Below are positions 1-61,643 of a stretch of 64,000 nt of DNA, piece by piece. The notes beneath the pieces are model-generated. The model was not told the DNA's origin and did not search any database. It saw only the letters and a program-made list of their open reading frames with translations. The stretch's first letter is position 1; every line of letters starts with the position of its first letter. The DNA comes from Campylobacterota bacterium. Its GTDB lineage: Bacteria; Babelota; Babeliae; Babelales; RVW-14. The stretch spans positions 310,243 to 374,242 of the forward strand of contig JACKCO010000004.1 in NCBI GenBank assembly GCA_020633995.1, written 5' to 3'. The position numbers were made by a program, and so were the translations under genes.

Positions 1-1029
1 AAAAATATAGTGATAAAGATAGGAGCTGTGCTCCTCATGGGGTTTCTGTCGTACCAAGAACCACATGTTAATAGTTGGTTTTACATTGGTTTTTTTTGTA
101 AAGGATGTAGCCAGTTCTGCAAATAAAGTATCCAATATATCTTTTTTGTACATGCCTTTTGGATACTCTGTTGTATATTTACCCGTTGCAAGAAAATTAC
201 TTATTGCGGAATGAAAATTGGGGTCTATATCTAACGATTTTATTTTTTCAAAGTTTTCTATATCAAAGCCCACGACACGATTATCTCTAAAATCAATGTA
301 ATAGTTATAAACTGTAGGTACATCGATGACATCAAAACTATGGCTTTTTTTAACTTCTGGCTTTGCTAGCATTTCGTAAACAGAATTGTACCAGTTGAGG
401 GTGAGCTTGTTACCAAACTGATTTTTAAAAATAGTAGTACGCTCAAAATCTTGCTCTACAGGCTCGATGAAGTTGAAACCTATATTTTCATACCCAAGAA
501 TTTCCAGGCCTTTTGCTAGCAAATATTGTTGTAAAAAATTGACTCCAGCACCAAATGACGTGTGTACTATAGTTTTCTGAGTTTTTGGGGGGAAATTGTT
601 ATTAAGCTGGGCAAGCTGTGTGAGTATTATTTTTATACGGTCAATATTTGTTAAGCTTTCACAGGTACACCAATTAAATGTTACAGGCTCATTTTTTCCT
701 GTTTTTGTTTGCGTGGTGATTATAGCGCCGTTATTATGTTTAAGCGTTAAAACACAGCTGTTTCTTTTGTGATGAGATTTTCGTTCGGTTTCACGTAAAG
801 CCTCCTTGAGTACCTTCCATAATTCTTTTCTATGGTCCTGAGTCAGAGATATAAATTGACTTTGATCAGCCAGCATAGCTGATGTGTCTTCAAGATCCGC
901 GTTACATGCATCGGCGTCTGTGCGGTTAACAACCGGTTCATACGTGAAAGCGTCAGTTCCGGCAGCTTTGATGGTATAATTTTGTATGCTTAAAAAAATG
1001 AGTGTTGTGAGTAATAATTTTTTTTGCAT
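1..1029 (-). CDS. Secreted hypothetical protein, C-terminus cut by the window edge; paralog of 1031..2764
   Basis: ATG at 1029, one nt after the stop of the upstream gene. My hand translation (MQKKLLLTTLIFLSIQNYTIKAAGTDAF...) stays open down to position 1. It is absent from the ORF track because there is no stop inside the window. WCTCESLTN..IVHTSFGAG..FNFIEP..KKSHSFDVIDVP aligns with the neighbour's WCSCPSLSN..IVHTTFGPG..IQMIEP..KKSHSFDIIDLP. Confidence 0.6.
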   Translation of the reverse strand, partial: MQKKLLLTTLIFLSIQNYTIKAAGTDAFTYEPVVNRTDADACNADLEDTSAMLADQSQFISLTQDHRKELWKVLKEALRETERKSHHKRNSCVLTLKHNNGAIITTQTKTGKNEPVTFNWCTCESLTNIDRIKIILTQLAQLNNNFPPKTQKTIVHTSFGAGVNFLQQYLLAKGLEILGYENIGFNFIEPVEQDFERTTIFKNQFGNKLTLNWYNSVYEMLAKPEVKKSHSFDVIDVPTVYNYYIDFRDNRVVGFDIENFEKIKSLDIDPNFHSAISNFLATGKYTTEYPKGMYKKDILDTLFAELATSFTKKTNVKPTINMWFLVRQKPHEEHSSYLYHYIF

Positions 1030-1030
1030 G

Positions 1031-2764
1031 TCAGATCTCACTAGCTAGTGTTTGCATAAGTCGCAGCATTTTGAGTTTGAGCAGCTGCAACATGTTAGTT
1101 AGTTGATTTATGGCTTGAGTTGCAAAATCTGCTGGAATTTCAAAATCAGGCAAGATTTTACTAAAGTCGTCGTAAAGTTCTTGAGTTGGATAAAAAGAGC
1201 CTTGCGAGTAATGAATTTTTTGGTTATTTGACTCAAAGACGATTGCGTTGTTTGATATTTTATTCTGCTCAACCAAGTACGAATATTCTCCATAAATAGA
1301 GCGATGTAATTGAACAGAGAGCGTGGATTGTGGTTCATGTTTTTGTATAAATTTTTCAAATGTTTCTATAACAGATTGAGTCACCTGAGTTTGTGACTTG
1401 CTTTTATTGTTTATGAATGCTGTGCGTGTTAGTTTTTTTAGTTCTTCAAGTTGTGCTGCAGAAAGAAGAGTTGGTTCTGGTTCTTCTTCATCTTCTTCAG
1501 AAGGAATTTCAAAGAATAGGTCTTTGCCTGATAAGGTATTGTTGATTCTAGCATGTATCAAATCATACCCATTTTGTTCATTAATAAGTGTAACGCAACA
1601 AAAAAGGTCATAAAGGGCACTAACTGTATCGCTTTTCGTATTCTCTTGATGTATTTGAAGAGTAGTTATGGTATCAAAAATGCGAGCAAAGCTTATTTTT
1701 TCATATTCACTTGTAAACAGTTTATTAAAATTTTCTTCGGTTAGATTTTTTAAGGTCTCATTGAATTTGTTATTTTTAGAAAGGCTTGATAGTGCATTAA
1801 GCACACGAGCCCTACTTGCAATCGCGTCTGCACTAGCGTCTTCGTCTGTAAGATTGTATTCTGCTACGAGATAATTTTGGTTGGTACCATCACCTTCGAG
1901 TAGCTTGTAAATGTCTGCAGACTCTTCGTCATTAAGCTGTATATTTTCTGCTAGCTGTTGAATTGTTACGAGTTGTGACGGTGTATAGTTTTGCTCTATA
2001 GAACTTTCATAGTCTGTTGGGAGATCAATGATGTCAAAACTATGACTTTTTTTGGTGGTATCTTCAGCCTTAAGGCTGTAAACATCTGGGAAATGTATGA
2101 GCGTAACCTTCTTGTTTTCATCTGCTGAGAGTAGCGCTTGTATCTTGTCAGTGGGCGGTTGTGCGGGTTCAATCATCTGAATGGTAATGTTTTGGTAACC
2201 AAGTATTAACATACCCTTAATCAAAAGGTACAGTTGCGCGCCTTGCCCCGGCCCAAAGGTAGTATGGACAATAGCAGGTGTTGAGTCGGGTGGGAATGTT
2301 GTGTTGAGTGCGTTAAGTTGTTTGAGCGTTGTTTCAACGCGCATAACGTTTGAAAGACTAGGGCAACTGCACCAAGCTATCCCGTTATTTGCCGGTTCGT
2401 TCGGAAGCTGGATGTTAATACGCGTTAGGTATCTGTTAGGATTATTATAGTCAAAGTGTTCATCTGTATCAGTAAAGTCGTCATGTGTGGGAATAAAGGT
2501 ATAGGGTTGCTTAAAAATTTCTTTTAAAAATGTCCAAAATTTTTGTTGTCGATCTTGACTAAGCGATGTGTTGCTGATTATTTTAGCGATTTGAGTAAGT
2601 TCGTATGCGCGTGCCGTATAGTTTGCTTCATAGGTAAAGGATTTCTTATCCAAGTCAATTGCTGGATCAAAGGTTATGGTGCAAAGCAAGCTTTGTCCCA
2701 GTCCAATCAAGACGAGAGCTAATAATGTGTAGCGAGATAGTGAGTGTCCCCTAGTATTTTTCAT
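1031..2764 (-). CDS. Secreted hypothetical protein (577 aa) with a possible Rossmann/methyltransferase-like core and a C-terminal LKLKM helix
   Basis: Long ORF with N-terminal signal peptide MKNTRGHSLSRYTLLALVLIGLG. Paralogous to 1..1029. C-terminus is NMLQLLKLKMLRLMQTLASEI. Confidence 0.6.
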   Translation of the reverse strand: MKNTRGHSLSRYTLLALVLIGLGQSLLCTITFDPAIDLDKKSFTYEANYTARAYELTQIAKIISNTSLSQDRQQKFWTFLKEIFKQPYTFIPTHDDFTDTDEHFDYNNPNRYLTRINIQLPNEPANNGIAWCSCPSLSNVMRVETTLKQLNALNTTFPPDSTPAIVHTTFGPGQGAQLYLLIKGMLILGYQNITIQMIEPAQPPTDKIQALLSADENKKVTLIHFPDVYSLKAEDTTKKSHSFDIIDLPTDYESSIEQNYTPSQLVTIQQLAENIQLNDEESADIYKLLEGDGTNQNYLVAEYNLTDEDASADAIASRARVLNALSSLSKNNKFNETLKNLTEENFNKLFTSEYEKISFARIFDTITTLQIHQENTKSDTVSALYDLFCCVTLINEQNGYDLIHARINNTLSGKDLFFEIPSEEDEEEPEPTLLSAAQLEELKKLTRTAFINNKSKSQTQVTQSVIETFEKFIQKHEPQSTLSVQLHRSIYGEYSYLVEQNKISNNAIVFESNNQKIHYSQGSFYPTQELYDDFSKILPDFEIPADFATQAINQLTNMLQLLKLKMLRLMQTLASEI

Positions 2765-2879: not shown

Positions 2880-3093
2880 GGGTAGTGCATGAAAAAAGCC
2901 TAAGTTACGCAAGGAAACGTTGATTTGGGCGCAGGATAGCAGCTTTATACACTTTTTAGCTTGTCTATTTACTTCTCCTGACCGAGTGGGTATAACAGGT
3001 GTAGGCTATGGTAATAAAATCCCCAATTTGGGGATTATTTTTATAGTGCTTGAATGCCCAAAAAGGGCTTACATAGGGAGAAAGGAAGCGGTT

Positions 3094-3654
3094 ATGAGTA
3101 GTAATGCCAAGCAGGGGGGCGAAAGGACCAGCGTCGCCTGGTTTGCGTTGTCAAATTTGATAGCACGTAAGGAGAAGGAAAAGGCGCTCAACGTCTTTCG
3201 GTTGCTGGCACATTCTTTTGATGATCGTGCTTATACGCTGCAGATAGAAGGTGATATCTTGTGGCATCTTGATGACTATGACCAGTCGATTGAACGGTAC
3301 AAAAAAGCTGCATTTTTGTACCAAAAGGAAAAACGCTTGATCAACGCGATTGCAATCTACGAACATATGCTCAGTATGAATGAACATAACGACGAAATTC
3401 TGGCTCAATTGATTTATTTTTACCTACTTGCTGATTTGCAGGATAAGTTTGAACAACGTTTTGAGCTGCTAGCCCAGCGCCAGAGTAAGCATCAGTTTGA
3501 TGAACAAGTGTTGCTAAAGTTTGCAAAGCTAATAGCCGAAACGCTCAACACCCCAGAGCGGGAGCAAACGCGTGCTTGGGCAATACAAACGATGAAAAAA
3601 GTGTGTCAACACCATGCACCCGATTTGATGCAACATTTTTTACAAAATCATTGA
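3094..3654 (+). CDS. TPR-like helical repeat protein
   Basis: ATG at 3094 preceded by gggagaaaggaag. The track ORF starts at an upstream TTG (2920). Repeated A/Y/L helical pattern (YKKAAFLYQKEKRLINAIAIYEHML). Confidence 0.45.
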   Translation: MSSNAKQGGERTSVAWFALSNLIARKEKEKALNVFRLLAHSFDDRAYTLQIEGDILWHLDDYDQSIERYKKAAFLYQKEKRLINAIAIYEHMLSMNEHNDEILAQLIYFYLLADLQDKFEQRFELLAQRQSKHQFDEQVLLKFAKLIAETLNTPEREQTRAWAIQTMKKVCQHHAPDLMQHFLQNH

Positions 3655-32480: not shown

Positions 32481-35400
32481 CTATGCGATGACTTGTAATT
32501 GTGTGCCAATTTTTTCAAGGTACATTCCTCTCTTCTTTTCATTAGTACCTGCTGTTGGAAACTTTTCTTTTATTTTTTTGCCCAAATCATCTATTTTTTT
32601 TCCAATGTCTGCTGCATTTCCATTATTAAGGATAACATAATGATCTTTGATTGCTTCATCGAAATCAGTTTTTTTGTTATAGATATCATCTTTATTTTTA
32701 CCTATAGCAGTATTGAATTTCTCACATATTTCTTTCCCAAGATCATCTAGAGTAGCATTATTGGCAGCGTCAACATCAAAGGCGGTAATGTCAAGGGACA
32801 GAGCAATATTATTAATTTGGGTTAAAGTACCTACGGGGTCTGCTTTGAACACAAGCACGGTGTTAGTAGCGCCGCCGCCGCCGCCTCCGCCGCCGCCACC
32901 AGCGCCACCAGCGCCTCCGCCTCCGCCAGCGCCGCCTCCGCCGCCGCCGCCTCCGCCGCCAGCGCCTTTAGCAGGTAGAGTTCCAACTGCTGCAATGGCT
33001 GCATCGATGCCGCCTAAGTCAAGGCCAAGGATGGTATTGATAGCTGTTGCCTTAGCTTTGGTTATAGCAGTGTTAAGTGCCTCAATGTCTGTTTTGTCAA
33101 AATCTGCATCGGCTGCTCCAGGATTTGCTTTATTTGCAGTAAACCAGTCACTTAGGCTAGTAGCACCATCACTGGCTGTTTTGTTGGCAGCATTGATCAC
33201 ATCGTTAAACGCATTGAGTGCTGCACTAAGTGAACCATCACTAAATGGTGGGGCCTGTAGTGCATTGGTTATTGGTTGAAGTGCTGGATTAAGTCCTGAA
33301 AGATCTTTGTTGCCTAACTCTGTAATGAGTGCTGTAACTTTGCCACCAAGTGCTGCAGGATCATTGTTCAACAGATTAAGTGCTTGTCGTTGTTTTATAG
33401 CGTCTGCTCCTAAGATTGCTTGCGCATCTGCGCTTACAGCCAAGTCTTTCAGTGCAGTGTGTACTGCAGTTCTTGTCTTAGCTAGTTTAGCTATTTTTGC
33501 TTTGGCGTTTGCTACCAATTTGTCTGCAACGGTTTTGGCAAAGGTTTGCTTTGTTGGATCAACTGCTGCATTCAGTCCGTTAAAGCCTGTTATGCTTGCG
33601 TAATGGGCAAGTGCTATATTTGCATCAGCTGCCTTGCCATAGACGTCAGTAATAATTTCTGCTTTTTGTGTATCGATGTAGTTTTCATACGCTGTTTTGC
33701 TTGTTGGGACAGCGGCAATGCTGGTATCATATTCTGTTTTTACCTCAGCATTGGTACCAGCTTTGACTGCTGCTAGTTTGGTATCAAAGTTTTTGATGAT
33801 ATCTGTGTGACCATTGCCATCGATGAGTGACTTTTCGATGTGTGCGTTCATAATGTTTTTGAGAATGTCTTCGGTAGCTGCTGCGTCTGCACTGTCTTTG
33901 ATTGCTTGTATGAACGCTGCGTTTGGATAAATATCATGGCCAGCGATATCAGTGTCATCTGCAGGATTTTTGTAAAATCCGTATAGTGCTTCAATTGCGG
34001 CATGTTGTGTTGCTACAGAAGCGTTTTTGCAATTAGCTTCGGTTGGATTTTTGCTTACTTGTGCCAAGTCATGAAGTGCTTGAACAAGTGGATCGGTTAA
34101 GCGTGCGCTTAAGTCGCTGTAAGCAGGCAGTGCGTTAGTGACAATGTTAGCGTCGTCTTGGTGATGCCATGACATGGCGCTGAGTGCTTCTAAGATATTT
34201 TTTTGTGGATCAGAAGCTGTTCCAAGCCAGGCTCTAAATGTTGCAGTCATTGTCGCCCACCAACCTGAACCGGATGTGCCAAGTCTTTTATTGCTGATTT
34301 CAAACAAAATCGCATCACGTAAAGAGCTTGTTGGCGCGGTGTCACTAACGATGTCTTTTAAGCGCTTGACGACTTGTTTTGAAGTGTTGGCGTCTGCAAG
34401 ATTGAAAATGTTGTCATACAAGTTGTAGTTGTTGAAAAGCTGGCTTGTCCACTTAGCACGGTTTGGTGCACCTGCAATGGTGAGTGTATGGTAGTCTTCA
34501 GCGGCTTTTTGAACGGTATTGATATTCAGCTTCAAGATATTGTTTGTGAAGTAGGTAAAAACTTCTTGTTTAGATTTACCCATGACATTTGGGTTTGTAC
34601 CACTTAAGTCAACTTTAGCTCCTACCACCCCTGGTGTTGGGTAATTGTACAGCAGGCTGTCAAGGGTTTTTGTCATGGCAGGGCTTTTTGCTGCTTCAAA
34701 TGTTGTTCCTGGAGCGTCGTAGGCATCTGCCAACGCGAAGTGCTTGTGGTGTTGGTGCTCCATGAGTTTATCAACAATGGTTTCAAGAGAGTTTTTGACT
34801 GTTGCTGCTTCAAACTTATTTGCCGCGAATGCACCTTCAAAATTACCTAGTTTGCCAGTATTAGCAGTGCGGGCGTCCTTGACTTTTTTAAAAGCGAGGA
34901 GAAGGTCGAGGTGTTTTTTAGTGGTTGGTTCGTCTGTTGCCGCTGCAACTGGCCCAGGAGCAAGTGGTATTGCTTGGTTAACAAAAGTAGTGAGTAGACT
35001 TGCAGGAGCTGCGTTATTCGCTATGTTAGTAACGCAACTGATTGCGTCATCATTTGCCAGAACTTCTAGCATGTTGTTTGCTTCACCTGCTAGACCATGG
35101 GTTCCAGACGCATGAATATTTTTTATATCAGCATGATGTGCTTTAACAATTTTGACGAGTGCTGATGCGTCAGCATCGGCTTTGAAGGTTGCAGCAACGT
35201 GGAAAGGGCTTTTGTTAAATTCATGCAGGACGTCGTTGTTTATAGCTTCAGCAGCAACCTCTCTCAACGCAGCTAGTGTTGCATCTTTGACTGCGGCAGC
35301 ATCTGTCTCATCTGGTGCAGCGGCTATAATTTTTCCAAAAATTTCATTAGCAAAACCCTTGGTGTCTTTCATTAATTCTGTAATATCTGTATGAGCGGCT

Positions 35401-36224
35401 TTTAGTGCATCATCAGCGCCAGCCTTGAAAAATTTCTTAGATTCTTTCTGGTCAGCTGTTGTTAGATCAGCTTTGATTGCAGTCCACAATGCATCTTTTG
35501 CTGCAGCGCCTGTTGGTGCTGGTGGAGATGCGATTGGTGCGAGCTTGGTAGCAATTTGGGCTACCAGTGGTGCAGCTCCGGTAACACTGCTTACGTTTGG
35601 ATTGATAGATGAAATGAGTTTAGGGTTAGTGTGCGCGAGGAATTTAGTTGCGTCGGCTGATTTTTGTGTATCGCGTCGTACGCCATCACTTTTGAATGAG
35701 TCAGGTGCGAGTAATTTTTTTGAAAGCCTTTCCAGCGCTTGTTGAAACTGAGTGTATGCTGTTAACACTTTTTGAGCATCTGCTTGTGAGGGTGAGGTGT
35801 TAATGAAGTCATCCATTTCGCTGGCGATTGTATCGATACGAGCATTAATTTTACCTGCCCAGCTGTTTGAGTATGGATTTGCAGCTGTTGGCGTGAAATT
35901 AATACTCGTCAGTGGCAGGCCAGCACCACTAGCGCTCTTGTACTTTTTAATGATATTATTTTCGGCCGTTGCATCGTCGATGCCGGCAAGCATCCCATCG
36001 ATAGCGGTGACTGTATCGAGTAGTTCTGTTTCGATGTCATCCGCACCTTTTTTATCGATATCTGTTGCTGTTTTCTCAAGGCGTGCATCAGCGTCCTTGC
36101 ATAATTTGCTAATTATTCCAAAGTTCCACGCCGCGGCTAATGGACTGAATGAGCATAGACTGATGAGCAACGTCAGAAATGTTGCGATTGTCGCGTAGCG
36201 TGCTCTTACTCCTGTTTGCTTCAT
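32481..36224 (-). CDS. Giant Ala/Lys/Asp-rich secreted surface protein (1247 aa) with a poly-Gly tract
   Basis: Uninterrupted 3.7-kb ORF. Signal peptide ..ATFLTLLISLCSFSPLAAA. No domain that I recognise. Confidence 0.8.
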   Translation of the reverse strand: MKQTGVRARYATIATFLTLLISLCSFSPLAAAWNFGIISKLCKDADARLEKTATDIDKKGADDIETELLDTVTAIDGMLAGIDDATAENNIIKKYKSASGAGLPLTSINFTPTAANPYSNSWAGKINARIDTIASEMDDFINTSPSQADAQKVLTAYTQFQQALERLSKKLLAPDSFKSDGVRRDTQKSADATKFLAHTNPKLISSINPNVSSVTGAAPLVAQIATKLAPIASPPAPTGAAAKDALWTAIKADLTTADQKESKKFFKAGADDALKAAHTDITELMKDTKGFANEIFGKIIAAAPDETDAAAVKDATLAALREVAAEAINNDVLHEFNKSPFHVAATFKADADASALVKIVKAHHADIKNIHASGTHGLAGEANNMLEVLANDDAISCVTNIANNAAPASLLTTFVNQAIPLAPGPVAAATDEPTTKKHLDLLLAFKKVKDARTANTGKLGNFEGAFAANKFEAATVKNSLETIVDKLMEHQHHKHFALADAYDAPGTTFEAAKSPAMTKTLDSLLYNYPTPGVVGAKVDLSGTNPNVMGKSKQEVFTYFTNNILKLNINTVQKAAEDYHTLTIAGAPNRAKWTSQLFNNYNLYDNIFNLADANTSKQVVKRLKDIVSDTAPTSSLRDAILFEISNKRLGTSGSGWWATMTATFRAWLGTASDPQKNILEALSAMSWHHQDDANIVTNALPAYSDLSARLTDPLVQALHDLAQVSKNPTEANCKNASVATQHAAIEALYGFYKNPADDTDIAGHDIYPNAAFIQAIKDSADAAATEDILKNIMNAHIEKSLIDGNGHTDIIKNFDTKLAAVKAGTNAEVKTEYDTSIAAVPTSKTAYENYIDTQKAEIITDVYGKAADANIALAHYASITGFNGLNAAVDPTKQTFAKTVADKLVANAKAKIAKLAKTRTAVHTALKDLAVSADAQAILGADAIKQRQALNLLNNDPAALGGKVTALITELGNKDLSGLNPALQPITNALQAPPFSDGSLSAALNAFNDVINAANKTASDGATSLSDWFTANKANPGAADADFDKTDIEALNTAITKAKATAINTILGLDLGGIDAAIAAVGTLPAKGAGGGGGGGGGGAGGGGGAGGAGGGGGGGGGGATNTVLVFKADPVGTLTQINNIALSLDITAFDVDAANNATLDDLGKEICEKFNTAIGKNKDDIYNKKTDFDEAIKDHYVILNNGNAADIGKKIDDLGKKIKEKFPTAGTNEKKRGMYLEKIGTQLQVIA
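32871..32966 (-). repeat. Imperfect (GGN)n trinucleotide tract encoding about 32 Gly/Ala residues
   Basis: gccgccgccgccgcctccgccgccgccaccagcgcc... on the plus strand. The protein reads GAGGGGGGGGGGAGGGGGAGGAGGGGGGGGGGA. Confidence 0.9.
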
Positions 36225-36405: not shown

Positions 36406-38061
36406 TTAAAATGCAAAGCCCATTTTGCCCCAAACGGTGTAGCGCTCAAGGTCAGCATTTGATGAGGCAAATTCATATGACGCACCAATGGCAACACTTG
36501 AATGGAGGCCGCACATGCTGAACACATAACCCAGCGAGCCACCAAGGGTGTGGGTGAACAGAGCCGGTGTTCTGGCTGCTTCAACATCCAGGACATCACG
36601 GTTGATCATCAGTTCTACAGCGTCTTCTTCTAATGGGTTGATTGTTAGAAAACCTGGAATAGCTTTAGGCAGGGCATACTTGTCATCTTCCCAGTGCTTG
36701 AGCCAAACAGACTCTTTGTCTTTCCAGAACATATTGTAACCAGCATCAACCACAAAACCTCCTGAACAAAATGAAAGTGATGCAAGCGCGTCAAACAAGC
36801 TGCCTGGTTTTACACGCAGGTCGGTGGTTAGCACATTAGCAGCTGGAAAGAGTGGAGTGCCTGCTGGTGCATTAAGCTTGCCGATAGCAAAATAATGGCT
36901 GAATGGCATGCATTTGAGTGACAGGGTACGAGTTTCAGTTTTTTCAGCTAAGTAGCGGTAGTTAGCAACTAAGTGACCATCTACGCGGCCATTTTTGTTG
37001 TGCCATAGGCGGCCACTAACCTCAACGTTGGCATTAAAGCTGATGTGGCGACCGTTACCATAAATTGGCTCAAACAGATATTCGCCACGTACTTTGTTAC
37101 CTGTTGGCGCGGTGATACCAGCGCTGATAAAGACGTGTGCATTTTCTTTATGCACAACTTTGTAGCCCAGCATGAGGTCTATGTCGGCAACACCCAGCGC
37201 GCTGCGGCGGCAATCAATTTTTGCATGAGTGAGCGGGCAGAGCATTTCTCTGTTTTCAGGATCTCCAGAGGCATCAAGAGCTGGGTCGACATTGCGTACA
37301 CGGCCAGCAAAAAAGTCATGAGCACTCCACTCGTTGAGTGGTAGCTGTGTGAATTTTGCTTTTTGTTCTGGTAGGTCGCAACTGTCATCACATGGGCAGT
37401 CAGTGTCAACTGGGCAGGCTGGTGTTGGGCACGCTACCGGACATGGGTCGCAGCTGTCGGTTTTGCATGCGCCTTTTACATTCTTGCCGGTGCGAGCACG
37501 CATACTGGTGGCAACGTGCACGAGCGGCATGCTCATTTTAAAATAGAGCCCGGTAAATGGATGCATAATGTCTTGCATCAAATCAAGACGAACACCGTAG
37601 CTTTCGTGTTGTGGTTTCCAGGTGAGTGTTGTGCGAAGTTCTTGGCTCGTTGGTGCAAAGGGGTTGGTTGGTATAATGCGACGATCGTCAATTTCAGCAC
37701 CTTCTGCTGGGGTAATAGTAGCTGCTGCACCATCGGGATCTACGATAGTTCTCGTGTTGTCAAAGCGAATGCTGTTTGTTTTTTTGCAGCGATCGATGTT
37801 GCATTTTTCAATGCCAAAATATCCTCCCGTTTCACGGGTATTTTGTGATTGCTTGTAAAATGGTGTGATTTGAAATTTGGTGTGATGCGAATCTTTTTTA
37901 TGCGTGTGTTTGTGCCACGTGAAGTATTCAGTCATGAGGTCATTGATGTCGGGGCGCGTTGCCATGTATGTTTTGCCGGTATGGTCATCGCTGCCTGCAA
38001 AAAGTGTGCCCGCACACATAACTGCAACCAAAAGCGCATGTACAAAAGATCTATGCGTCAT
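36406..38061 (-). CDS. Outer-membrane beta-barrel protein (MOMP-like), paralog 1, with a Cys/Pro/Asp-rich insert
   Basis: 551 aa. Signal peptide. C-terminal ..WGKMGFAF (terminal Phe). Alternating beta-strand pattern. Paralogous to 40708..42414. Confidence 0.75.
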   Translation of the reverse strand: MTHRSFVHALLVAVMCAGTLFAGSDDHTGKTYMATRPDINDLMTEYFTWHKHTHKKDSHHTKFQITPFYKQSQNTRETGGYFGIEKCNIDRCKKTNSIRFDNTRTIVDPDGAAATITPAEGAEIDDRRIIPTNPFAPTSQELRTTLTWKPQHESYGVRLDLMQDIMHPFTGLYFKMSMPLVHVATSMRARTGKNVKGACKTDSCDPCPVACPTPACPVDTDCPCDDSCDLPEQKAKFTQLPLNEWSAHDFFAGRVRNVDPALDASGDPENREMLCPLTHAKIDCRRSALGVADIDLMLGYKVVHKENAHVFISAGITAPTGNKVRGEYLFEPIYGNGRHISFNANVEVSGRLWHNKNGRVDGHLVANYRYLAEKTETRTLSLKCMPFSHYFAIGKLNAPAGTPLFPAANVLTTDLRVKPGSLFDALASLSFCSGGFVVDAGYNMFWKDKESVWLKHWEDDKYALPKAIPGFLTINPLEEDAVELMINRDVLDVEAARTPALFTHTLGGSLGYVFSMCGLHSSVAIGASYEFASSNADLERYTVWGKMGFAF

Positions 38062-40707: not shown

Positions 40708-42414
40708 TTAAAATGATACGCCAACTTTACCCCAGATACCCCAGTTGTCGTAGTTGCTGTTGCTTGAAGCCCATTCATACTGACCACCAAGACCCATCAT
40801 CAATGGATATTCCCATTCATGGAAGAAGTAACCAAGGCCACCGTAGATTTTGTTGCTAAACTGTGATGGTGTTTCTGCTACGCGTGTGTTGACGTTGCTT
40901 GAAGTAAGTTCAAGTGGTGTGCCGTCAGATTTTCTTTCTGCTTGGTTGTCTTTGCTGAAGCCGTTTGTTTGATCGATTTCAGCATTACGAGCGACCAAGT
41001 GCCAACCTTTAGGGAATCCGTCGCAACCGCATTTGAGTTTGACTGACTCTTGTTCACGGTAGTAGAGTGTGTAACCAAAGTCAAATACAAAACCGCAGTT
41101 GGTGTATGACAAGCCAAAGAGTGCGTTCACTTGGCTGCCAGGGGTTACATCAACGCCAAGGCAGGTTGACACGTTAGCAAATGGTGTTAAGCATTTGTCA
41201 CCATCTTTTGCAACAAGGTACCATGGGCTGCATGGGCGGCCAGGGCACTCAATGCCAAGCGCACGGTTTTCACAGCTTTCAAACAGGTAGCGATATTTAA
41301 CCGCGATATCAAGTTTGAGGTTGTGCTTGTGATCATCGCCCCATAGTTTGAACCATGATTTGAAATCAAAACCAACACCAAAGTGGTTACCGTTACCTTG
41401 TACGCTTTCAAACAACCATCTGCCATCTGGGTCGTTACCCGTTGGGATGGTGATTGCAAACGCAAGGGCTGCACGGTAGTCATCTTTGTAGAGGAAGTGA
41501 TAGCCAAGGCCTAAGTCGATGTCTGAAACGCCGGTTTCATCATCTGGACCTTTGCAACCGCAACGGTCGATGCGCAGTTTGCAGAGTTCTTTTTGGCAGT
41601 TTGTGTCAGCAGTACCAACTTTGTTGTCTACTTTTGCACCGCTGTAGTAGTTTTCAAGTTGTTTTTTGAGTGTTTCGTCGTCACTCTGTACAAACATGTT
41701 CATTTTATGTTCAACATGTTCAATAGTCATGTTGCCATAAAAGTACAAGCCTTTAAGGAGTTTATCCAAACTTTGGTAGTAGTCAAAGCGTGCACCATAA
41801 CGTTCTGCGTCTGGGTTTGTGCAAATTTTTGCTGTTTTATCATTAGTAGTTGAGAGTTGCTTGTTGTGATCGTGAACGATGTAGCGCCAGTCAACCGTGT
41901 CAACAGCTGATTTTGCAGCTGGAGTTGACGCCGTTGTTCCGTCGCTGGTACCATCACGCTTAACTATAGAGCCAACATCTTCTGTTTTAAATTCACAGCA
42001 GGTGCCGCATTTTGTTTTGCAGCCGGTGTTGCATTTGCATGGGTCGCAGTTGCAAGTGCCACAGCAGCTTGGATCTCTGGTGATTTCACTTCTAGTGCAG
42101 CAGCTTGAGCAGGTGCCGCAGGTGCCTGTTGAGCAGCTTGTGTCACATTTGGTGTCACATGCTTTTCCACAGCAGCTGAAGTATGTGCCGAGTTCACTGC
42201 TTGATGATGAGTCCATCCAAAATGGAACTACTTGAAAATTCGCGCCAAATTTATCTTCGGCGTGTCTGTCAATCATGCGTGCGAACGTGGTGTATTCCAT
42301 GGCCAAGTTGACATTACTTGGACGTGGCATTAAGAAGGTTTTATTGTTATGAGCGAAAACCGATGCTGAGCTAACGGTCAGCAATGCGGCTAAGAGGGCT
42401 TTTATTTTATTCAT
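40708..42414 (-). CDS. Outer-membrane beta-barrel protein (MOMP-like), paralog 2, with a ~65-aa Cys-rich insert
   Basis: ATG at 42414 gives MNKIKALLAALLTVSSASVFA. C-terminal ..WGKVGVSF. Both termini align with 36406..38061. Confidence 0.75.
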   Translation of the reverse strand: MNKIKALLAALLTVSSASVFAHNNKTFLMPRPSNVNLAMEYTTFARMIDRHAEDKFGANFQVVPFWMDSSSSSELGTYFSCCGKACDTKCDTSCSTGTCGTCSSCCTRSEITRDPSCCGTCNCDPCKCNTGCKTKCGTCCEFKTEDVGSIVKRDGTSDGTTASTPAAKSAVDTVDWRYIVHDHNKQLSTTNDKTAKICTNPDAERYGARFDYYQSLDKLLKGLYFYGNMTIEHVEHKMNMFVQSDDETLKKQLENYYSGAKVDNKVGTADTNCQKELCKLRIDRCGCKGPDDETGVSDIDLGLGYHFLYKDDYRAALAFAITIPTGNDPDGRWLFESVQGNGNHFGVGFDFKSWFKLWGDDHKHNLKLDIAVKYRYLFESCENRALGIECPGRPCSPWYLVAKDGDKCLTPFANVSTCLGVDVTPGSQVNALFGLSYTNCGFVFDFGYTLYYREQESVKLKCGCDGFPKGWHLVARNAEIDQTNGFSKDNQAERKSDGTPLELTSSNVNTRVAETPSQFSNKIYGGLGYFFHEWEYPLMMGLGGQYEWASSNSNYDNWGIWGKVGVSF

Positions 42415-42888
42415 TCGTATACCCCACAAATTATAACGTTTAACTTGTGACCTTAAAGTACCATGCACTAAAATTTTTTATACAATTTTAATTGCTTGCA
42501 AAAATAATCATGAAAATATTTGTATCGTTTTCTGCACGACCTCCTTTCCACTCAAAATGTATTCGGCACACATTGACCCTACCTAATTTACAAGGAGCTC
42601 GTTGACTTGATCAATGCGTCACCATCGCGTACATTTTCCACACTGCTTGACTTAATGAGACCAGTCAAGCGTAACGAATGTTGTTCAAGATATCAAGTCT
42701 TTTTTGTCCTCGCGTTTTTCACTTCACACTACGTTTTGAAAATTATACAAATCTCTGTAAAGTTAAATTTATATAAAAAGGTTGGACGGATGCAATACTT
42801 TTTACACAAAATTTTTTTTTGCATAAAAAAACGACGGAAAAGTAAGAAAACTTTTTTTGTTTAAAAGATTGACTGAAAGCGGGACGGT

Positions 42889-54235: not shown

Positions 54236-57013
54236 CTACTTCTTCTGCGCCTCTCGCCATTCTGCTACAGCATCTGCGACAAGTTGCTCTGCGTCGTCTG
54301 AGTGAATGGTTGGAACAAGTCTTTTTGCTTTAAATGATTTTTGGGCAAGCTCTTTCATTTGACCTCTTTGTCTTTGTATGTGCAGCTCGCCAGCTTTATT
54401 AAAATCGAAATATTCAATAGGAGCTTTTGTATCACTATAGGTTTTGAAAAGGTGTTCAAAATACCCATGAAAATCTTCACCCATAGCTAATACCCAACTT
54501 GCAACAAGTTCATTAACTTCTTTTTTATCTACCCCAGAACCTTGCAGTAACTGGTTGGTGTAACGCAGAAGATTGGCTGCTAGGGTGTCTATTTCTGTTT
54601 TGTGCTGTGAGTTGGTATAGTCTTGCTTGTCTTCATACAGGTTTTTGACTGCATTAAACTGAGCATCATCGTCTTCATCAACTTCTACACCACCCTCTTC
54701 TGGTGGTGCTTCTGACTCTTTACGTTTACGTTCTTCTTCTTCTTCCCTGCGCTCACGTTCTAGGCGTTCACGCTCTTCTTGTTCTCTGCGTTCACGTTCT
54801 TCTTTTTCTCTGCGTTCACGTTCTTCTTTTTCTCTTTGCCTTTGTTCAAAGCTCTTTTGAGTTGCAGCGGCTCTTTTTTTAGGAGCTGCTCGACCTTTTG
54901 TTTCTTGCCCCATTCTTGGGCCGCTACCGCCTGAGGGTACGCCAGCGCCGGGACTAGATTTTTTAGCTTCTGTATCTGGCTGCTTTGGCTCTTCTTTTTT
55001 CGGCTCGCTCTCTGGTTTCTTTGGCTCCGCCTTTGGCGCGCTTGCACCGCTTACCAGATACATGAGGTTGCTGAGTTTGAGTTTGGTGAGTGCTACTTGG
55101 GCAAACACTGGATCAACGTCGACGGTTTTAGGTTTTTCTGGCTCTGAAGCAGGTTCTGGTTTTTTAGTCTTCATGTTTTTTAAGGCGCTGAGAACCTTTT
55201 TAATTTGAGGTTGTATCTGTGCAATTCGTTGGGTAAGTTGTTCTGTGCTGTAGGCATCAGGTGATGCTTCAAGAAGTAAGATCAGTTCATTAACTGCTTG
55301 TATAACAGTTTGTTTCTCAGGGGACTCTGGTTCTGATTCAAGCTCTGTTAATATTGCTTTGTGTGTTTTAATATGCTTGTTTTTTAGGCTTTTCAGTTCT
55401 TCAAGCTTTTTGTTTCGTTCAACGAGTTGCTGCTCTTGGTTTCTTTGTGCCTCACGTTCGCGTTGTTCTCGCTCTTCCCTTGCACGTTGTTCGCGTTGCT
55501 CGCGCTCTTTGCGTAGACGTTCATATGCACGCTTCTCAGCTTCTGCTGCTTTGTCTTGATCTTTGGTTTTCTTCTTGTAGTCATCGTGTTCAGCTTTTGG
55601 TAGTGATGCTTTTCTTGCTTCTAGCTCGTCTGCCTTTGCTCCGTCTTCTTCAGCTACTGCAATCTTGATATCACTAAAGTTAATGGTACCGGCACCACCA
55701 AAGCCAACATAGGCGATATTTTTTATACCTTTATCTACGCGGTGCTTGAGGATCGTGTTCTCTTCGCTTGGGCTGTCGCCGTAGCCAGCGGTAATGGTGT
55801 TGCCAAAAAATTGAACCCAAAATGGATTGCTTTCGCTGTCGGCTTGTACGGCATGGTCTGCAGTGTGAACTAGTTCACTGTCTCCATGTTTAAAAATTGC
55901 CCATTTTGAGTTTTCCCATCCGCCAAAGACGATGGCATAGCCTTGCAATTCCTCTGTTTTGACGGGGTCTTGTTTTGTGGGTGAGAGCCCGACATAAAAA
56001 TCATTTTGCCCTTTGCCAACGTTAAAGGTGATCAGCCCTTGTTGTTGTTGCGGTAGCTTCCAGGATTCGTCGAATGTTATTTTGTATTCATGGTTTTTGT
56101 TTAATGCAGATAATATCGTGGGCTCTGGGGTTGGTTCAGTGGCTGGCTCCGGCTCCGTCGGTTCAGGCTCCGGCTTTGCCGATTTAGGTTCTGGTTCGGG
56201 GTGAGGATCAGTTTTTTTCTTCTCTGCTTCTTTTTTCTTTGCATCTTCAGCAGCTTTTTTTGCCTCGCTTTGTAGCTTGATTGCTGCCTCTACTTTTGTT
56301 GAGAGGTCATGTATAGTTTTTGGATCTTGAGGTTGAGCTCCTGCAAAGAAAGTGTAGGCAGTTGTTTGGGGTGCTGTGTTTTTATATTTGGTTACTCCGT
56401 CTGAATCGGTAACAGTGTCTATAACTTGGGTTTTAAACGTGTTTGGTTTCTCTTCGGTTGTCTTTTGCAGGAGGTGTGTGTTCAATTTGGAGACTAAGAG
56501 ATTATAACTTCTGTCATTGTGGATAGTTTGTATATCATTTGCTGTTATCACTTGTGCTAGCTGGTTTGCGATGTTGTTGGCCAGCGCTTGTTGCATAGCA
56601 GATTGCTTTGTTGTGACTTGAGGTAGCGTGGGCATAACTCTCTGTTGAGTCATTATAGCTCCACTATATTGTGCTCCGGTGAGAAGTTTGCATGTTAATT
56701 CAATGTATTGATTAAGCGCTGTTTTGGTTTGTTCATAAGCCGTTGTATTAGGTTTTGTTCCTGAGACCCCAAGCACGGAGCCTACGCTTTCCCAAAATCC
56801 CTTTTTTGGCTCAAGCCCTTTAAGCTCGTTGTAAAGCGGTTCTATGTTTGGGTGCCCTTTAACTTGATTGGTAATCTCTTGTACTTTTGTTTGATCGACT
56901 ATGAGCGTTACAGATTTTGGCGTACCACTAAACATGGCCCATGCCTGACCACTGAGCAAAAGCGCTAGGGCTAGTACGACAAAAAATCTAAACACGTTTA
57001 GTTTTGCCATCAT
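54236..57013 (-). CDS. Large secreted protein (925 aa): paralog-family N-domain, jelly-roll domain resembling Methyltransf_FA/FAMeT repeats, Glu/Arg-rich coiled coils
   Basis: Signal peptide ..FFVVLALALLLSGQAWA. NDFYVGLS..YAIVFGGWENSKWAIFK..FWVQF..YVGFGG. REQREREAQR and REKEERERREKEERERREQEERERLERERREEEEERKRKE tracts. Confidence 0.75.
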   Translation of the reverse strand: MMAKLNVFRFFVVLALALLLSGQAWAMFSGTPKSVTLIVDQTKVQEITNQVKGHPNIEPLYNELKGLEPKKGFWESVGSVLGVSGTKPNTTAYEQTKTALNQYIELTCKLLTGAQYSGAIMTQQRVMPTLPQVTTKQSAMQQALANNIANQLAQVITANDIQTIHNDRSYNLLVSKLNTHLLQKTTEEKPNTFKTQVIDTVTDSDGVTKYKNTAPQTTAYTFFAGAQPQDPKTIHDLSTKVEAAIKLQSEAKKAAEDAKKKEAEKKKTDPHPEPEPKSAKPEPEPTEPEPATEPTPEPTILSALNKNHEYKITFDESWKLPQQQQGLITFNVGKGQNDFYVGLSPTKQDPVKTEELQGYAIVFGGWENSKWAIFKHGDSELVHTADHAVQADSESNPFWVQFFGNTITAGYGDSPSEENTILKHRVDKGIKNIAYVGFGGAGTINFSDIKIAVAEEDGAKADELEARKASLPKAEHDDYKKKTKDQDKAAEAEKRAYERLRKEREQREQRAREEREQREREAQRNQEQQLVERNKKLEELKSLKNKHIKTHKAILTELESEPESPEKQTVIQAVNELILLLEASPDAYSTEQLTQRIAQIQPQIKKVLSALKNMKTKKPEPASEPEKPKTVDVDPVFAQVALTKLKLSNLMYLVSGASAPKAEPKKPESEPKKEEPKQPDTEAKKSSPGAGVPSGGSGPRMGQETKGRAAPKKRAAATQKSFEQRQREKEERERREKEERERREQEERERLERERREEEEERKRKESEAPPEEGGVEVDEDDDAQFNAVKNLYEDKQDYTNSQHKTEIDTLAANLLRYTNQLLQGSGVDKKEVNELVASWVLAMGEDFHGYFEHLFKTYSDTKAPIEYFDFNKAGELHIQRQRGQMKELAQKSFKAKRLVPTIHSDDAEQLVADAVAEWREAQKK

Positions 57014-57021
57014 TTTCCTTT

Positions 57022-57750
57022 TTATTTGGCACTAATTTTGTGCATGAGATTTATCATTTTTAGCTTCATAATTTGTAGCTGGGTGAGTGTTGCATCTTGT
57101 GATGGTTTTTCTGGAGTACTTTTTTTCTTTTCGGGGGGTGTTGAAGTTTGTGTCTTTTTCCAGGCTACTTTAGCATTGTTTACTTTTTCTTTTAGGTGGT
57201 TGATGTTTAAGGCCTGTGTTACATCGACTAAGTATTTTTGGTGGACAAAGTTTTGGTTGGTTGTACCTGTGAAGGATGGAAGGTCACTTGGAAACCATGT
57301 GTTCACTTTTGCTATGAATGGCTTTACAAGTTGGTTGCTGATTTTGCTTTCGTCATCATTAATGTTTTTAAGTGTTTCCTCTGTTAAGCTTATGTACTTG
57401 TTGCTTGTGAAAAATGTGGCTAACCCTGCAGAGAAAAGGCTCGGTTGTCTATCTCTAGGAATGACGATGCCTTGATGTAGTTCGCAAAAAAGTAGGATGA
57501 GATCTTCAAGAGTTTTTTTAGTTTTTGGCTGACCTGAAGACCAGGGAATCCAACTGGGGCTAACTTCAGCTATAAGCTTTTTAATCGAATCTTTTTCTAA
57601 GACGTTGTTATAAAGTGTTGTTATATCAGTGTCTGTTTTTAGGGAAAGATCAGATTCTTTCTGAGATGATTCGGCTCCCCACGCACTGCTCGTAAACAAA
57701 AAAGTAACTATTAGTACTACAAACATTGTATGGGATAACTGCTTTGCCAT
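57022..57750 (-). CDS. Secreted protein, LKLKM-tail family (242 aa)
   Basis: Signal peptide ..VVLIVTFLFTSSAWG. C-terminus LTQLQIMKLKMINLMHKISAK. Paralog of 57763..58476. Confidence 0.7.
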   Translation of the reverse strand: MAKQLSHTMFVVLIVTFLFTSSAWGAESSQKESDLSLKTDTDITTLYNNVLEKDSIKKLIAEVSPSWIPWSSGQPKTKKTLEDLILLFCELHQGIVIPRDRQPSLFSAGLATFFTSNKYISLTEETLKNINDDESKISNQLVKPFIAKVNTWFPSDLPSFTGTTNQNFVHQKYLVDVTQALNINHLKEKVNNAKVAWKKTQTSTPPEKKKSTPEKPSQDATLTQLQIMKLKMINLMHKISAK

Positions 57751-57762
57751 GGGTTTCCCTTT

Positions 57763-58476
57763 TTATTTAGCACTAATTTTGTGTATAAGATCCATCATTT
57801 TTAATTTCATAATTTGTAGTAAAGTCAGCGTTGGTTCGGTTTGTGTCTGCTTGCCATGCTCGTCATTGTATGCTTTGAGTGTTGCTGTTATTTTTTCGGC
57901 AAGACTATCTCTGGTGTTAATGCTTGTAGGGCCTGCGTGTGCATAGTAATGGTAAGCTGTCTGTGTCAGGTCTATGCCAAATGTTGTTTGTATGTTTTGC
58001 ATCCATGTGTCTATTTTGTTTGCAAAGTTTTGTGTCAGCTCATCAAGCTTACTGCCTTGTTGAAACATGTTGGTATTGTGGATCTCTGTTATTTTTGTTT
58101 CTGTTAATTCAAGATAACTGCTGTTGATAAAGAATGTAGTAATTTCTGAAGGGAGTGTGAGGGGATTTTTTTCTTTTTTTATGTGGGTACCAGTGAGGAG
58201 TGAGCAGATATGGTCAACAAGTGCTTCAAGTATTTTTTGTGTGTTACTGGTAATGGAGGTAACAAATAGGTTAGTCGGAGGGGCTTGTGCAATGAGTTTT
58301 TTCATATCTTCTGTTGCAAGCACGTCTTGCTTGAGCTGCTCAACAGCTTCTGGTGAGTTAAGGTTGAGGTCTTGTGCGGGTGGGGTTGGATCGGCTGCGT
58401 GGGAGATGGTGCCAGAGTTTAAAAGCATTGCAATTGATAAGGCCAACAATAGAAGGGAACGTGTCTTTATTTTCAT
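57763..58476 (-). CDS. Secreted protein, LKLKM-tail family (237 aa)
   Basis: Signal peptide MKIKTRSLLLLALSIAMLLNSGTISHA. C-terminus LTLLQIMKLKMMDLIHKISAK. Confidence 0.7.
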   Translation of the reverse strand: MKIKTRSLLLLALSIAMLLNSGTISHAADPTPPAQDLNLNSPEAVEQLKQDVLATEDMKKLIAQAPPTNLFVTSITSNTQKILEALVDHICSLLTGTHIKKEKNPLTLPSEITTFFINSSYLELTETKITEIHNTNMFQQGSKLDELTQNFANKIDTWMQNIQTTFGIDLTQTAYHYYAHAGPTSINTRDSLAEKITATLKAYNDEHGKQTQTEPTLTLLQIMKLKMMDLIHKISAK

Positions 58477-58699
58477 ACCACTCGTCCTTTGTTTGTGTCA
58501 TGCTCAAACAGTACCTGGATAAATCAGAGCACATAGCTCAGCAAGACATATGATTGTTATTAAAAAAAAGAATAACAATCTTATGCTGGCAGAAGTTGGG
58601 CGAAGTGGTCAATAATTTGTAGGACTTGATGTCTTTATGATGTGAACCGGGCATAGAGGCTGCAGGGCAGCATGCGTTTGTCACTGGCATGAGCCAGAC

Positions 58700-58966
58700 T
58701 TAAAAGAGGTCGGCGTGTGTGCCAGTCCTAATAAAAATGATTTCGGTGTCAGTTTTTTTGTAAATGAGAAGCCAGTCTGGCTCGATGTGACATTCCCAAT
58801 AGGTACTGTATGGGCCCTTGAGTTTATGATTACGATTTTTTACGGGTAATTTTTTTGACTCAAGTAAAGCTTGCATGATCTGCCTTATCTTGGACATATC
58901 TTTGGAGCGCTTTTTTTGGCGTTGGATGTCTTTTGTAAATTGTTTTTGGTAGATAGCTATTAACAT
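58700..58966 (-). CDS. yafQ: Type II toxin, YafQ/RelE family mRNA interferase
   Basis: 88 aa. FTKDIQRQKKRSKD..NHKLKGPYSTYWECHIEPDWLLIYKKTDTEIIFIRTGTHADLF matches the YafQ family signature. Confidence 0.85.
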   Translation of the reverse strand: MLIAIYQKQFTKDIQRQKKRSKDMSKIRQIMQALLESKKLPVKNRNHKLKGPYSTYWECHIEPDWLLIYKKTDTEIIFIRTGTHADLF

Positions 58967-58969
58967 TGC

Positions 58970-59221
58970 CTAGATGCCCAATTTCTCAAATAAATCGTCG
59001 ATATTTTTTGCTTTTACAAGATTTTTCTTTTGTTCAGTATCCTTGATTGCTTGGCATGTTGTTTTATTGGGTTTTTTTTCTGTGTAGAGGTGCTCAATTG
59101 AGTCAATGACAAGCTGCCGCATGCTTTTTCCGGTTACCAAAGCAAGAGCTTTCAGGCGTTTGTGGTCTTGTTTTGGAATATCGATTGTTAGGCGAGAAAA
59201 TTCATTCGTTTGAGGTTTCAT
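58970..59221 (-). CDS. Antitoxin, ribbon-helix-helix type
   Basis: 83 aa. RLTIDIPKQDHKRLKALALVTGKSMRQLVIDSI is an RHH pattern. Its stop lies 3 nt before the toxin ATG. Confidence 0.75.
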   Translation of the reverse strand: MKPQTNEFSRLTIDIPKQDHKRLKALALVTGKSMRQLVIDSIEHLYTEKKPNKTTCQAIKDTEQKKNLVKAKNIDDLFEKLGI

Positions 59222-60656: not shown

Positions 60657-61643
60657 CTAGTCATCGCTATTTACCAAGTGGTCAAGTTTGTTGAGAGGAT
60701 GTTTTTCGTCACACATTTTAGCCAGCTGCTGGTTTGAAATGTGTGTGTAAATTTCGGTGGTTGAAATTGTTTTGTGTCCGAGCAGTTCTTGAATGACGCG
60801 TAGGTCAACGCCCTGATGAAGCATGTGTGTGGCAAATGAGTGGCGGATTTTGTGCGGTGTCAGGGTACGGTCGACTTTTAAAAATTTGCGAAACATTTCA
60901 AAAATACGTTGCACTGAGCGTGTGGTAATTTTGCTGCCGGCATAGTTTAAAAAAAGGTAGGGTTCATTGTCATCTTTGAGCAGCGTTGGCCGTTCAATAT
61001 TGATGTACTGCTCAAGTTGTTTTTGTGCTTTTGCGCCAAACAAGACAATGCGTTCTTTGCGGCCTTTGCCCAAAATCCTGATTGCTCGCTCACTAAAACT
61101 GATGTCGTTAAGCCTGATGTTGACCAATTCGCTACAGCGAATGCCGGTTGCGTACACTAACTCAAAAATTGACTTATCGCGGTGTGGAAACTTGGTGGGG
61201 AGGTTGTCGTTTTTGATAGCATCAAGCAGATAAAAGATTTCATCAACGCTGAGTGTTGCGGGTAGTTTTTTGTCCAGACGTGGTGACTTGAGATTGATGG
61301 TGAGTTTAATGCCTTGGTTGTGTAAAAATTGCTGAAATGAGCGTAGTGTTGAGAGTTTGCGTGCTAGTGATGACTTACTTACCTTTTTATAAAAAAGTGA
61401 GACAGCGTAGCGACGCAAAACGGTGTCCAAATCGAGTTTAACCTTTTTCTCTTTTTCTTTAATACGCTCCCAAAAGGCACAAAGCTGGTCAAGGTCACTT
61501 GCGTATGCGCGCAGCGTGTGAGCTGAGGCATTCTTTTCAACCTCTAAAAATGATAAAAAATCTTTTACTTTTTCTTTAAACTGTGCAATATCCACAAAGG
61601 CCTCCTTGTACGTCTGCGCGTTTGTATGATAGTGACGAAACAT
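60657..61643 (-). CDS. Tyrosine site-specific recombinase, XerC/XerD family
   Basis: 328 aa. ..ATGIRCSEL.. and HKIRHSFATHMLHQGVDLRVIQELLGHKTISTTEIYTH (R..HxxR..Y catalytic pattern). Confidence 0.85.
   Translation of the reverse strand: MFRHYHTNAQTYKEAFVDIAQFKEKVKDFLSFLEVEKNASAHTLRAYASDLDQLCAFWERIKEKEKKVKLDLDTVLRRYAVSLFYKKVSKSSLARKLSTLRSFQQFLHNQGIKLTINLKSPRLDKKLPATLSVDEIFYLLDAIKNDNLPTKFPHRDKSIFELVYATGIRCSELVNIRLNDISFSERAIRILGKGRKERIVLFGAKAQKQLEQYINIERPTLLKDDNEPYLFLNYAGSKITTRSVQRIFEMFRKFLKVDRTLTPHKIRHSFATHMLHQGVDLRVIQELLGHKTISTTEIYTHISNQQLAKMCDEKHPLNKLDHLVNSDD

Follow-up and report, generated by a model that had tools for sequence, protein, structure and literature searches.

Genes and conserved tails at the locus

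On the minus strand of the 64-kb window analysed here (the whole stretch of contig JACKCO010000004.1 under study, part of a metagenome-assembled genome), three closely spaced genes occupy positions 54236 to 58476 in the order g3, g2 and g1. Their products, grouped here as family A, begin with signal-peptide-like sequences, and g3 and g2 end in a nearly identical tail built around the residues KLKM. The same kind of tail closes a second pair of exported proteins, p577 and P0003 (family B). In each protein, conservation is higher in this C-terminal helix than in the remainder, and its sequence suggests a portable tag for attachment or sorting. The reading frames and tails of the cluster are exactly as an earlier sequence-only reading of this DNA had described them:

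57763..58476, minus strand: g3, first gene of the cluster, encoding an exported orphan of 237 amino acids, family A (open reading frame (ORF) list)
57751..57762, minus strand: g3-g2 junction of 12 nt with the ribosome-binding site AAAGGG, resembling the g2-g1 junction
57022..57750, minus strand: g2, encoding an exported orphan of 242 amino acids, family A (ORF list, BLASTP)
57014..57021, minus strand: g2-g1 junction of 8 nt with the ribosome-binding site AAAGGA
54236..57013, minus strand: g1, encoding a modular exported protein of 925 amino acids
57766..57831, minus strand: C-terminal tail of g3, TLTLLQIMKLKMMDLIHKISAK, with KLKM 10 residues from the C-terminus
57025..57090, minus strand: C-terminal tail of g2, TLTQLQIMKLKMINLMHKISAK, preceded by the linker TQTSTPPEKKKSTPEKPSQD

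The proteins encoded by g3 and g2 are paralogs with 31% identity (BLASTP, E 1e-24). Within their last 22 residues, 18 positions are identical, whereas the best 21-column window elsewhere in the alignment reaches only 9 of 21. The four replacements in the tail (L/Q, M/I, D/N and I/M) are all conservative. At the nucleotide level the tails are 80% identical and the gene bodies 45%, a contrast that had already been pointed out from the sequence, and the likeness runs on past the stop codon and through the ribosome-binding site AAAGG(A/G)AA to the ATGGCAAA start of the next gene. This similarity across the junction fits a tandem-duplication unit that takes in the junction. Because seven of the 18 identical tail residues are encoded by different codons in the two genes, it is the peptide rather than the DNA that is under purifying selection. 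Recent gene conversion, or an RNA or other nucleic-acid element, was considered as the cause of the conservation and is contradicted by these synonymous differences.

By inspection, all three proteins start with a Sec-type signal peptide in which a basic start is followed by a hydrophobic core and a cleavage site. In g3 this is MKIKTRSLLLLALSIAMLLNSGTISHA, with cleavage between SHA and AD; in g2 it ends in TSSAWG before AE; and in g1 cleavage falls between AWA and MF. A signal peptide and an N-terminal domain common to the three had been proposed, and the proposal stands only in part. The N-termini are all of the Sec type and a motif L-x3-[IFT]C-x-L-x2-G recurs in all three (LVDHICSLLTG, LILLFCELHQG and YIELTCKLLTG), but the signal peptides have no sequence likeness to one another and the kinship of the g1 domain is weak. 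It is limited to the first ~245 residues, was detected only through profile comparison, and is modest against the g2/g3 profile (hhalign probability 88%, E 3e-6); a HMMER profile search picks up g1 in two stretches. Pfam and NCBIfam scans of g3 gave no match.

Modular architecture of g1 and its internal helix copy

For g1, the second ATG is the more likely start; it gives a protein of 924 amino acids and is the start called in an independent assembly. From the N-terminus, the protein consists of the signal peptide, the family-A N-terminal domain, a Pro/Glu linker, a PF12248 beta domain, a Glu/Arg/Lys-rich helical stretch, an internal tail-like helix, a linker, a second Glu/Arg-rich stretch and a C-terminal domain for which neither Pfam nor NCBIfam returned a family. 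The features that could be placed on the DNA are the following:

56279..56935, minus strand: N-terminal domain (residues 27-245), related to g2/g3 and containing YIELTCKLLTG
55688..56083, minus strand: Methyltransf_FA domain (PF12248; residues 311-442), E 1.8e-10, 41.1 bits (cut-off 24.2)
55046..55108, minus strand: internal degenerate copy of the tail, FAQVALTKLKLSNLMYLVSGA (residues 636-656), with Pro/Glu/Lys linkers on both sides

The core of the internal copy, VALTKLKLSNLMYLVSGA (residues 638-655; DNA 55049..55102), matches the g2 tail in BLASTP with an E-value of 0.001, which bears out the claim that g1 holds such a copy. In the window-wide scoring described below it is the second-best match to the tail (score 33.5, shuffle P 0.012). 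Its degenerate state fits either a helix that does not need a terminal position or a relic left behind after the protein was extended at its C-terminus.

The two long Glu/Arg/Lys-rich stretches look like single alpha-helix spacers. PF12248 is a family that we take to be mostly eukaryotic. Among bacterial exported proteins the architecture of g1 is unusual, and it may point to life in association with a host.

A second exported family ends in the same helix

The gene at 1031..2764, whose product had been said to end in the same tail, lies in a second pair of paralogs:

1031..2764, minus strand: p577 (NCBI H6679_04440), encoding an exported orphan of 577 amino acids, family B
1034..1099, minus strand: C-terminal tail of p577, LTNMLQLLKLKMLRLMQTLASEI
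1..1029, minus strand: N-terminal 343 residues of a tandem paralog of p577, which runs beyond the start of the window; the full protein is P0003

The body of p577 is unrelated to g1, g2 and g3. The g2/g3 tail was compared by ungapped BLOSUM62 scoring with all 15,297 segments of 21 residues from the 41 other proteins of the window. The top match was the C-terminus of p577 with a score of 44, followed by the internal g1 copy, and the best of the remaining background reached 22. None of 2000 composition-preserving shuffles attained 44 (Gumbel P ~4e-4), and 1.2% attained 33.5. Moreover, only 164 of the 15,297 segments lie three residues or fewer from a C-terminus, so that the C-terminal position of the top match adds a further factor of ~0.01.

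P0003 (H6679_04435, 591 amino acids) provided an independent check, since its copy was found after the p577 match. Its gene is intact and lies directly downstream of p577 with a gap of 1 nt (TGAcATG). The C-terminus of P0003, outside the window, follows a Pro/Gln/Lys linker of ~55 residues with 28% proline and reads ...FTAILHVLKLKMLRLMQTVRQS (other excerpts of the same end are ...APNEFTAILHVLKLKMLRLMQTVRQS and ...LKLKMLRLMQTVRQS). This is the fifth copy of the helix overall. p577 and P0003 are 30% identical over their length, but identical at 11 of 11 positions of the core LKLKMLRLMQT, a region that ties for the most conserved 15-mer of their alignment. The two clusters therefore show the same picture of tandem, coupled paralogs with diverged bodies and a nearly fixed C-terminal helix.

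The sequence-only reading had named a chance match at 1031..2764 as the outcome that would speak against it. Because the distance from the C-terminus is fixed and the helix recurs in P0003, outside the window, the p577 tail is not due to chance. The helix is indeed shared by otherwise unrelated signal-peptide proteins, with two families contributing five copies between them. In all four terminal copies, 10-11 residues separate KLKM from the C-terminus, and low-complexity linkers set the helix apart from the protein bodies. The same reading had named confinement of the motif to four proteins as a further refutation. P0003 adds a fifth copy; so far the motif is known only from two clusters of tandem paralogs in a single organism.

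p577 and P0003 also share a beta-alpha-beta region (approximately residues 140-250) with the motifs IVHT[TS]FG[PA]G, [IF]IEP and KKSHSFD[IV]ID, which resemble those of Rossmann proteins or class I S-adenosylmethionine-dependent methyltransferases. Only in this region does the AF2 model of p577 reach a pLDDT of 50-75. A Foldseek search of the model against the PDB returned nothing at E<1e-3, and the weak top matches were Rossmann enzymes and methyltransferases (EgtD, MnmC2 and HNMT).

Physical character of the helix

The core of the helix follows the pattern h-x-x-h-K-L-K-M-x-x-L-h (h, hydrophobic residue) within ~20 Leu/Met-rich residues. None of the five copies departs from K-L-K or from the Leu that follows KLK[ML] by three residues. 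The KLKM codons differ between the families (AAA TTA / AAG CTA / AAA CTC). The tails have a net charge of +2 to +4, almost no aromatic residues, a mean hydrophobicity of 0.62-0.78 on the Fauchère-Pliska scale and a hydrophobic moment of 0.30-0.34. The helix is hydrophobic and cationic, but the label 'amphipathic' that it had been given from the sequence holds only moderately. The HeliQuest-type discriminant D (0.96-1.63) falls in the 'possible lipid-binding' range. Since the best 19-residue Kyte-Doolittle mean is 0.40-1.17, compared with the usual transmembrane threshold of ~1.6, the helix is not membrane-spanning; both Lys and Asp occur within it. In a heptad register of ~2.5-3 repeats, each of the five copies has hydrophobic residues at a and d and Lys at e and g. 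The 40 residues upstream of the helix are 65-97% polar or small.

A helical conformation of the tail is predicted. The AF2 model of g3, which has low confidence and, like that of p577, was built from alignments of 2-3 sequences, places a helix at residues 219-236 after a coil.

Distribution of the families and of the motif

Both families are orphans, known only from this metagenome-assembled genome and a strain nearly identical to it. With the family-A profile, HMMER was run exhaustively against 1.84 billion representatives and recovered only g1, g2, g3 and one 104-amino-acid fragment. When g3, p577 and the partial paralog were searched against a word index of proteins, each retrieved itself alone; as not even the neighbouring paralogs came up, this negative is weak. 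In the genome collection no relative turned up with the g2/g3 alignment, the viral contigs contained no relatives of family A or family B, and PDB sequence searches with both families gave nothing significant. An NCBIfam scan of all five proteins at E<=1 matched no C-terminal sorting-domain model, nor did Pfam, and the helix is accordingly without a match to a known sorting domain. A literature search on the sample and locus identifiers found nothing relevant.

At the DNA level, a scan of metagenomes for the pattern LQ[IL][ML]KLKM-x-x-L[IM] gave 34 matches, none at the C-terminus of a long ORF and all but three in reading frames of fewer than 60 codons. One of them, LQFMKLKMLDLIHK, matches the g3 tail at 13 of 14 positions and is internal to a cytoplasmic AAA_23/SMC-like ATPase (L091, 2863..2904; metagenome contig ERZ809152). 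Three of its residues agree beyond those set by the search pattern, and the match was treated as a coincidence. Within the window, no protein lacking a signal peptide has the helix.

Genomic context

The GC content of the window is 43.7%. About 14 of its 43 proteins look exported from their signal-peptide-like N-termini, and most of these are orphans. Ten tested ORFs, including one of 1247 amino acids at 32481..36224, belong to no Pfam family, and Rfam and tRNA scans of the window returned nothing. DnaE is at most 45% identical to its counterparts among the best 80 genomes listed, and the best matches are spread over many phyla. Outer-membrane-protein-like genes whose products end in Phe, together with peptidoglycan genes, indicate a two-membrane (Gram-negative) cell. 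Two paralogous signal-peptide proteins of ~550-590 amino acids, encoded on the minus strand at 36406..38061 and 40708..42468, have no Pfam match and end in ...WGKMGFAF and ...WGKVGVSF, in the manner of outer-membrane beta-barrels; they are possibly a lineage-specific major porin family.

Downstream of the g3-g2-g1 cluster, a tryptophanyl-tRNA synthetase gene lies on the opposite strand. Directly upstream of g3, 58700..59221 (minus strand) encodes a YafQ-family toxin (PF15738, E 6e-32) with a ParD-like antitoxin, and an XerC/D-type integrase is encoded at 60657..61643. The cluster may lie near a mobile or variable region. In addition, a contig of 529 nt from another metagenome (L118; ENA ERZ28655766), corresponding to positions 58100..58630 of the window, matches the 154 nt upstream of g3 completely (100% identity) and the initial ~165 nt of the gene at 90-95%, after which identity falls suddenly to ~45%. 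The contig ends in an ORF of 104 amino acids (P0006), and the 3' end and tail of g3 are outside its coverage. It represents either a mosaic or hypervariable g3 allele or an assembly chimera.

On the plus strand, 2920..3654 is divergently transcribed from the p577/P0003 pair; its product has weak matches to tetratricopeptide repeats (TPR) and no signal peptide. Terminal helices or peptides are frequent ligands of TPR proteins, but this one would sit in the wrong compartment for exported cargo.

A tethered docking helix as the favoured explanation

As a sequence observation in one organism, the tail is well supported. For its function we tentatively favour a tethered, sequence-specific docking or localisation helix that would act after Sec export. 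The portable C-terminal module would consist of a flexible linker followed by the Leu/Met-rich, positively charged helix of ~20 residues, and would have become attached to two unrelated Sec-exported families in one uncultured two-membrane lineage. After export, probably through Sec, the tethered helix would dock onto a shared protein partner, or onto the corresponding helices of co-expressed paralogs, and this binding would fix the place of the passenger domains in the envelope, at the surface or in a complex. A role in localisation is thus suggested for it.

The partner is more plausibly a protein than a lipid, because K-L-K and the Leu three residues later are near-invariant across unrelated bodies and 30%-identical paralogs, because the tether is flexible, and because the moment is modest and interfacial aromatic residues are lacking. 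The gaps between the tag-bearing genes and their paralogs are 12, 8 and 1 nt, a tight coupling that fits co-assembly of the tagged paralogs.

Several observations weigh against this proposal. No occurrence was found outside this organism, so that comparative support is absent. The 13-of-14 match within the AAA_23 ATPase means that a peptide of this kind can be an ordinary buried helix. About ten other signal-peptide proteins in the window are without the tail, so that it is not a general export tag, and no partner, receptor or machinery genes were identified within the window. The cross-family likeness is weak in HMMER (5-10 bits); what makes it significant is the score of the ungapped comparison, together with the constant spacing to the C-terminus and the existence of a fifth copy. 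The signal-peptide-like N-termini of all five proteins were judged by eye. The copy in g1 is internal, so that either a strictly C-terminal signal is not needed there or the copy is decaying. Finally, the AF2 models of g3 and p577 (pLDDT 37 and 40) show the tails as helices after coil and hold no tertiary information.

Alternative explanations

The helix might instead be an in-plane membrane anchor, a reading that we consider rather unlikely. A cationic hydrophobic helix lying in the membrane interface would then tether the exported proteins, as in Escherichia coli PBP5 and PBP6; the membrane could be the inner membrane at its outer face, the outer membrane at its inner leaflet, or a host membrane. 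The combination of a signal peptide with a C-terminal helix of ~20 residues on a flexible tether fits this, as do the charge, hydrophobicity and D values given above and a helix too little hydrophobic to span the membrane. The internal g1 copy is compatible with an in-plane helix, and PBP5, whose C-terminal 18 residues form a membrane-binding amphipathic helix, offers a precedent (PMC2909392). However, the moment of 0.30-0.34 compares with approximately 0.6 for reference anchors. With the two Lys of K-L-K on different sides of the helix, no clean polar face results, interfacial aromatic residues are nearly absent, and the near-identity of exact residues between 30%-identical paralogs exceeds the usual demands of lipid binding.

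Less probable still is a true sorting or secretion signal, by which a dedicated envelope machine would move or attach Sec-exported cargo in the manner of the type IX secretion system (T9SS) or of sortases, but with a helix as the recognised element. We give an equally low probability to its broader form, in which a deep-branching uncultured bacterium would sort or attach proteins after Sec export by a pathway that is specific to its lineage and has so far escaped recognition. The KLKM helix would be the cargo tag of this pathway, doing with a helix what the T9SS C-terminal domain or sortase signals do elsewhere, and would mark a larger set of orphan surface or host-interaction proteins across the genome. 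An N-terminal signal peptide and a common C-terminal tag on unrelated passengers, a core at a fixed distance from the C-terminus, a tag better conserved than its cargo, and an organism rich in orphan exported proteins would all be expected of such a system. On the other side, NCBIfam sorting-domain models do not match, only two families carry the tag, the last 3-5 residues are not conserved between them, the g1 copy is internal, and most signal-peptide proteins of the window are untagged. Nor does either cluster have sorting-machinery, processing-enzyme or translocon genes nearby, and the window contains no secretion-system genes.

Similarly improbable is a role in self-association, in which the tails of paralogs (g1/g2/g3 and p577/P0003) would bundle as a short coiled coil to give one hetero-oligomer per operon, and the likeness between the families would be convergence on a Leu/Met heptad pattern. 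The hydrophobic a/d positions with Lys at e/g in the five copies, the near-identity of the tails within an operon and their difference between operons, and the translational coupling of the genes are in keeping with this. Nevertheless, ~20 residues are short for a stable coiled coil, an all-positive e/g register disfavours parallel homotypic pairing, and it is not easy to see how convergence would give both families one and the same KLKM core equally far from the C-terminus.

Very improbable, finally, is conservation at the DNA or RNA level (gene conversion or the translation-initiation region of the downstream gene) or a chance cross-family match: three of the four terminal tails do lie directly upstream of the start of the next gene, the g3/g2 likeness does continue into the ribosome-binding site and start, and an unrelated cytoplasmic ATPase does match at 13 of 14 positions, but the nucleic-acid part is largely refuted already by the synonymous differences, both within the g2/g3 tails and between the families, and chance is opposed by the shuffles (0 of 2000), the C-terminal position of the match and the independent fifth copy in P0003.

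Comparison with known systems

The tethered docking helix favoured here can be set beside several systems in which a C-terminal segment decides the fate of a protein. The low-molecular-weight penicillin-binding proteins PBP5, PBP6 and DacD of E. coli are Sec-exported, as the proteins described here probably are, and their last ~18 residues likewise form a non-spanning helix; theirs fixes the protein at a membrane surface, and both correct localisation and function depend on it (PMC2909392). Those anchors have no sequence similarity to the present tails, and the bodies here are orphans with no peptidase or PBP (DD-carboxypeptidase) domain in Pfam or NCBIfam. The moment here is about half that of PBP5-type reference anchors (approximately 0.6). 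Unlike those anchors, the tails keep their K-L-K-M residues across unrelated families and sit on a long low-complexity tether. Coiled-coil helices usually need at least four heptads for stability, whereas only ~2.5-3 are found here, with hydrophobic a/d positions and e/g positions that are all Lys.

Substrates of type IV (Dot/Icm) and type I secretion carry a short, unprocessed C-terminal region on unrelated effector bodies. A short C-terminal region shared by unrelated bodies is also what is seen here, but those substrates normally lack a Sec signal peptide, whereas the N-termini of the five proteins are signal-peptide-like. In addition, Dot/Icm signals are polar and Glu-rich over 20-35 residues, in contrast to Leu/Met/Lys-rich tails with a charge of +2 to +4.

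The LPXTG/sortase, PEP-CTERM/exosortase and GlyGly-CTERM/rhombosortase systems combine a Sec signal with a C-terminal tag on unrelated cargo. The same holds for the T9SS, where an N-terminal Sec signal is joined to a shared C-terminal tag on unrelated cargo, often with several paralogs per genome (PMC5445135). The T9SS tag folds into a beta domain of ~70-100 residues, whereas the tag here is a single helix of ~21 residues that matches no model of that domain. The sortase, exosortase and rhombosortase signals consist of a motif, a transmembrane helix and a basic cluster, whereas here the Lys residues lie in the middle of a non-transmembrane helix, and no processing enzyme or translocon is encoded nearby. 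Envelope machinery has been discovered several times through the C-terminal tags of exported proteins, sortases, exosortases and type IX secretion among them. The tail described here is best filed under this known theme of a C-terminal tag on Sec-exported proteins, where a conserved portable helix offers a cheap handle on the organisation of surface and secreted proteins in a poorly understood uncultured bacterium, and a simple pattern for mining its genome.

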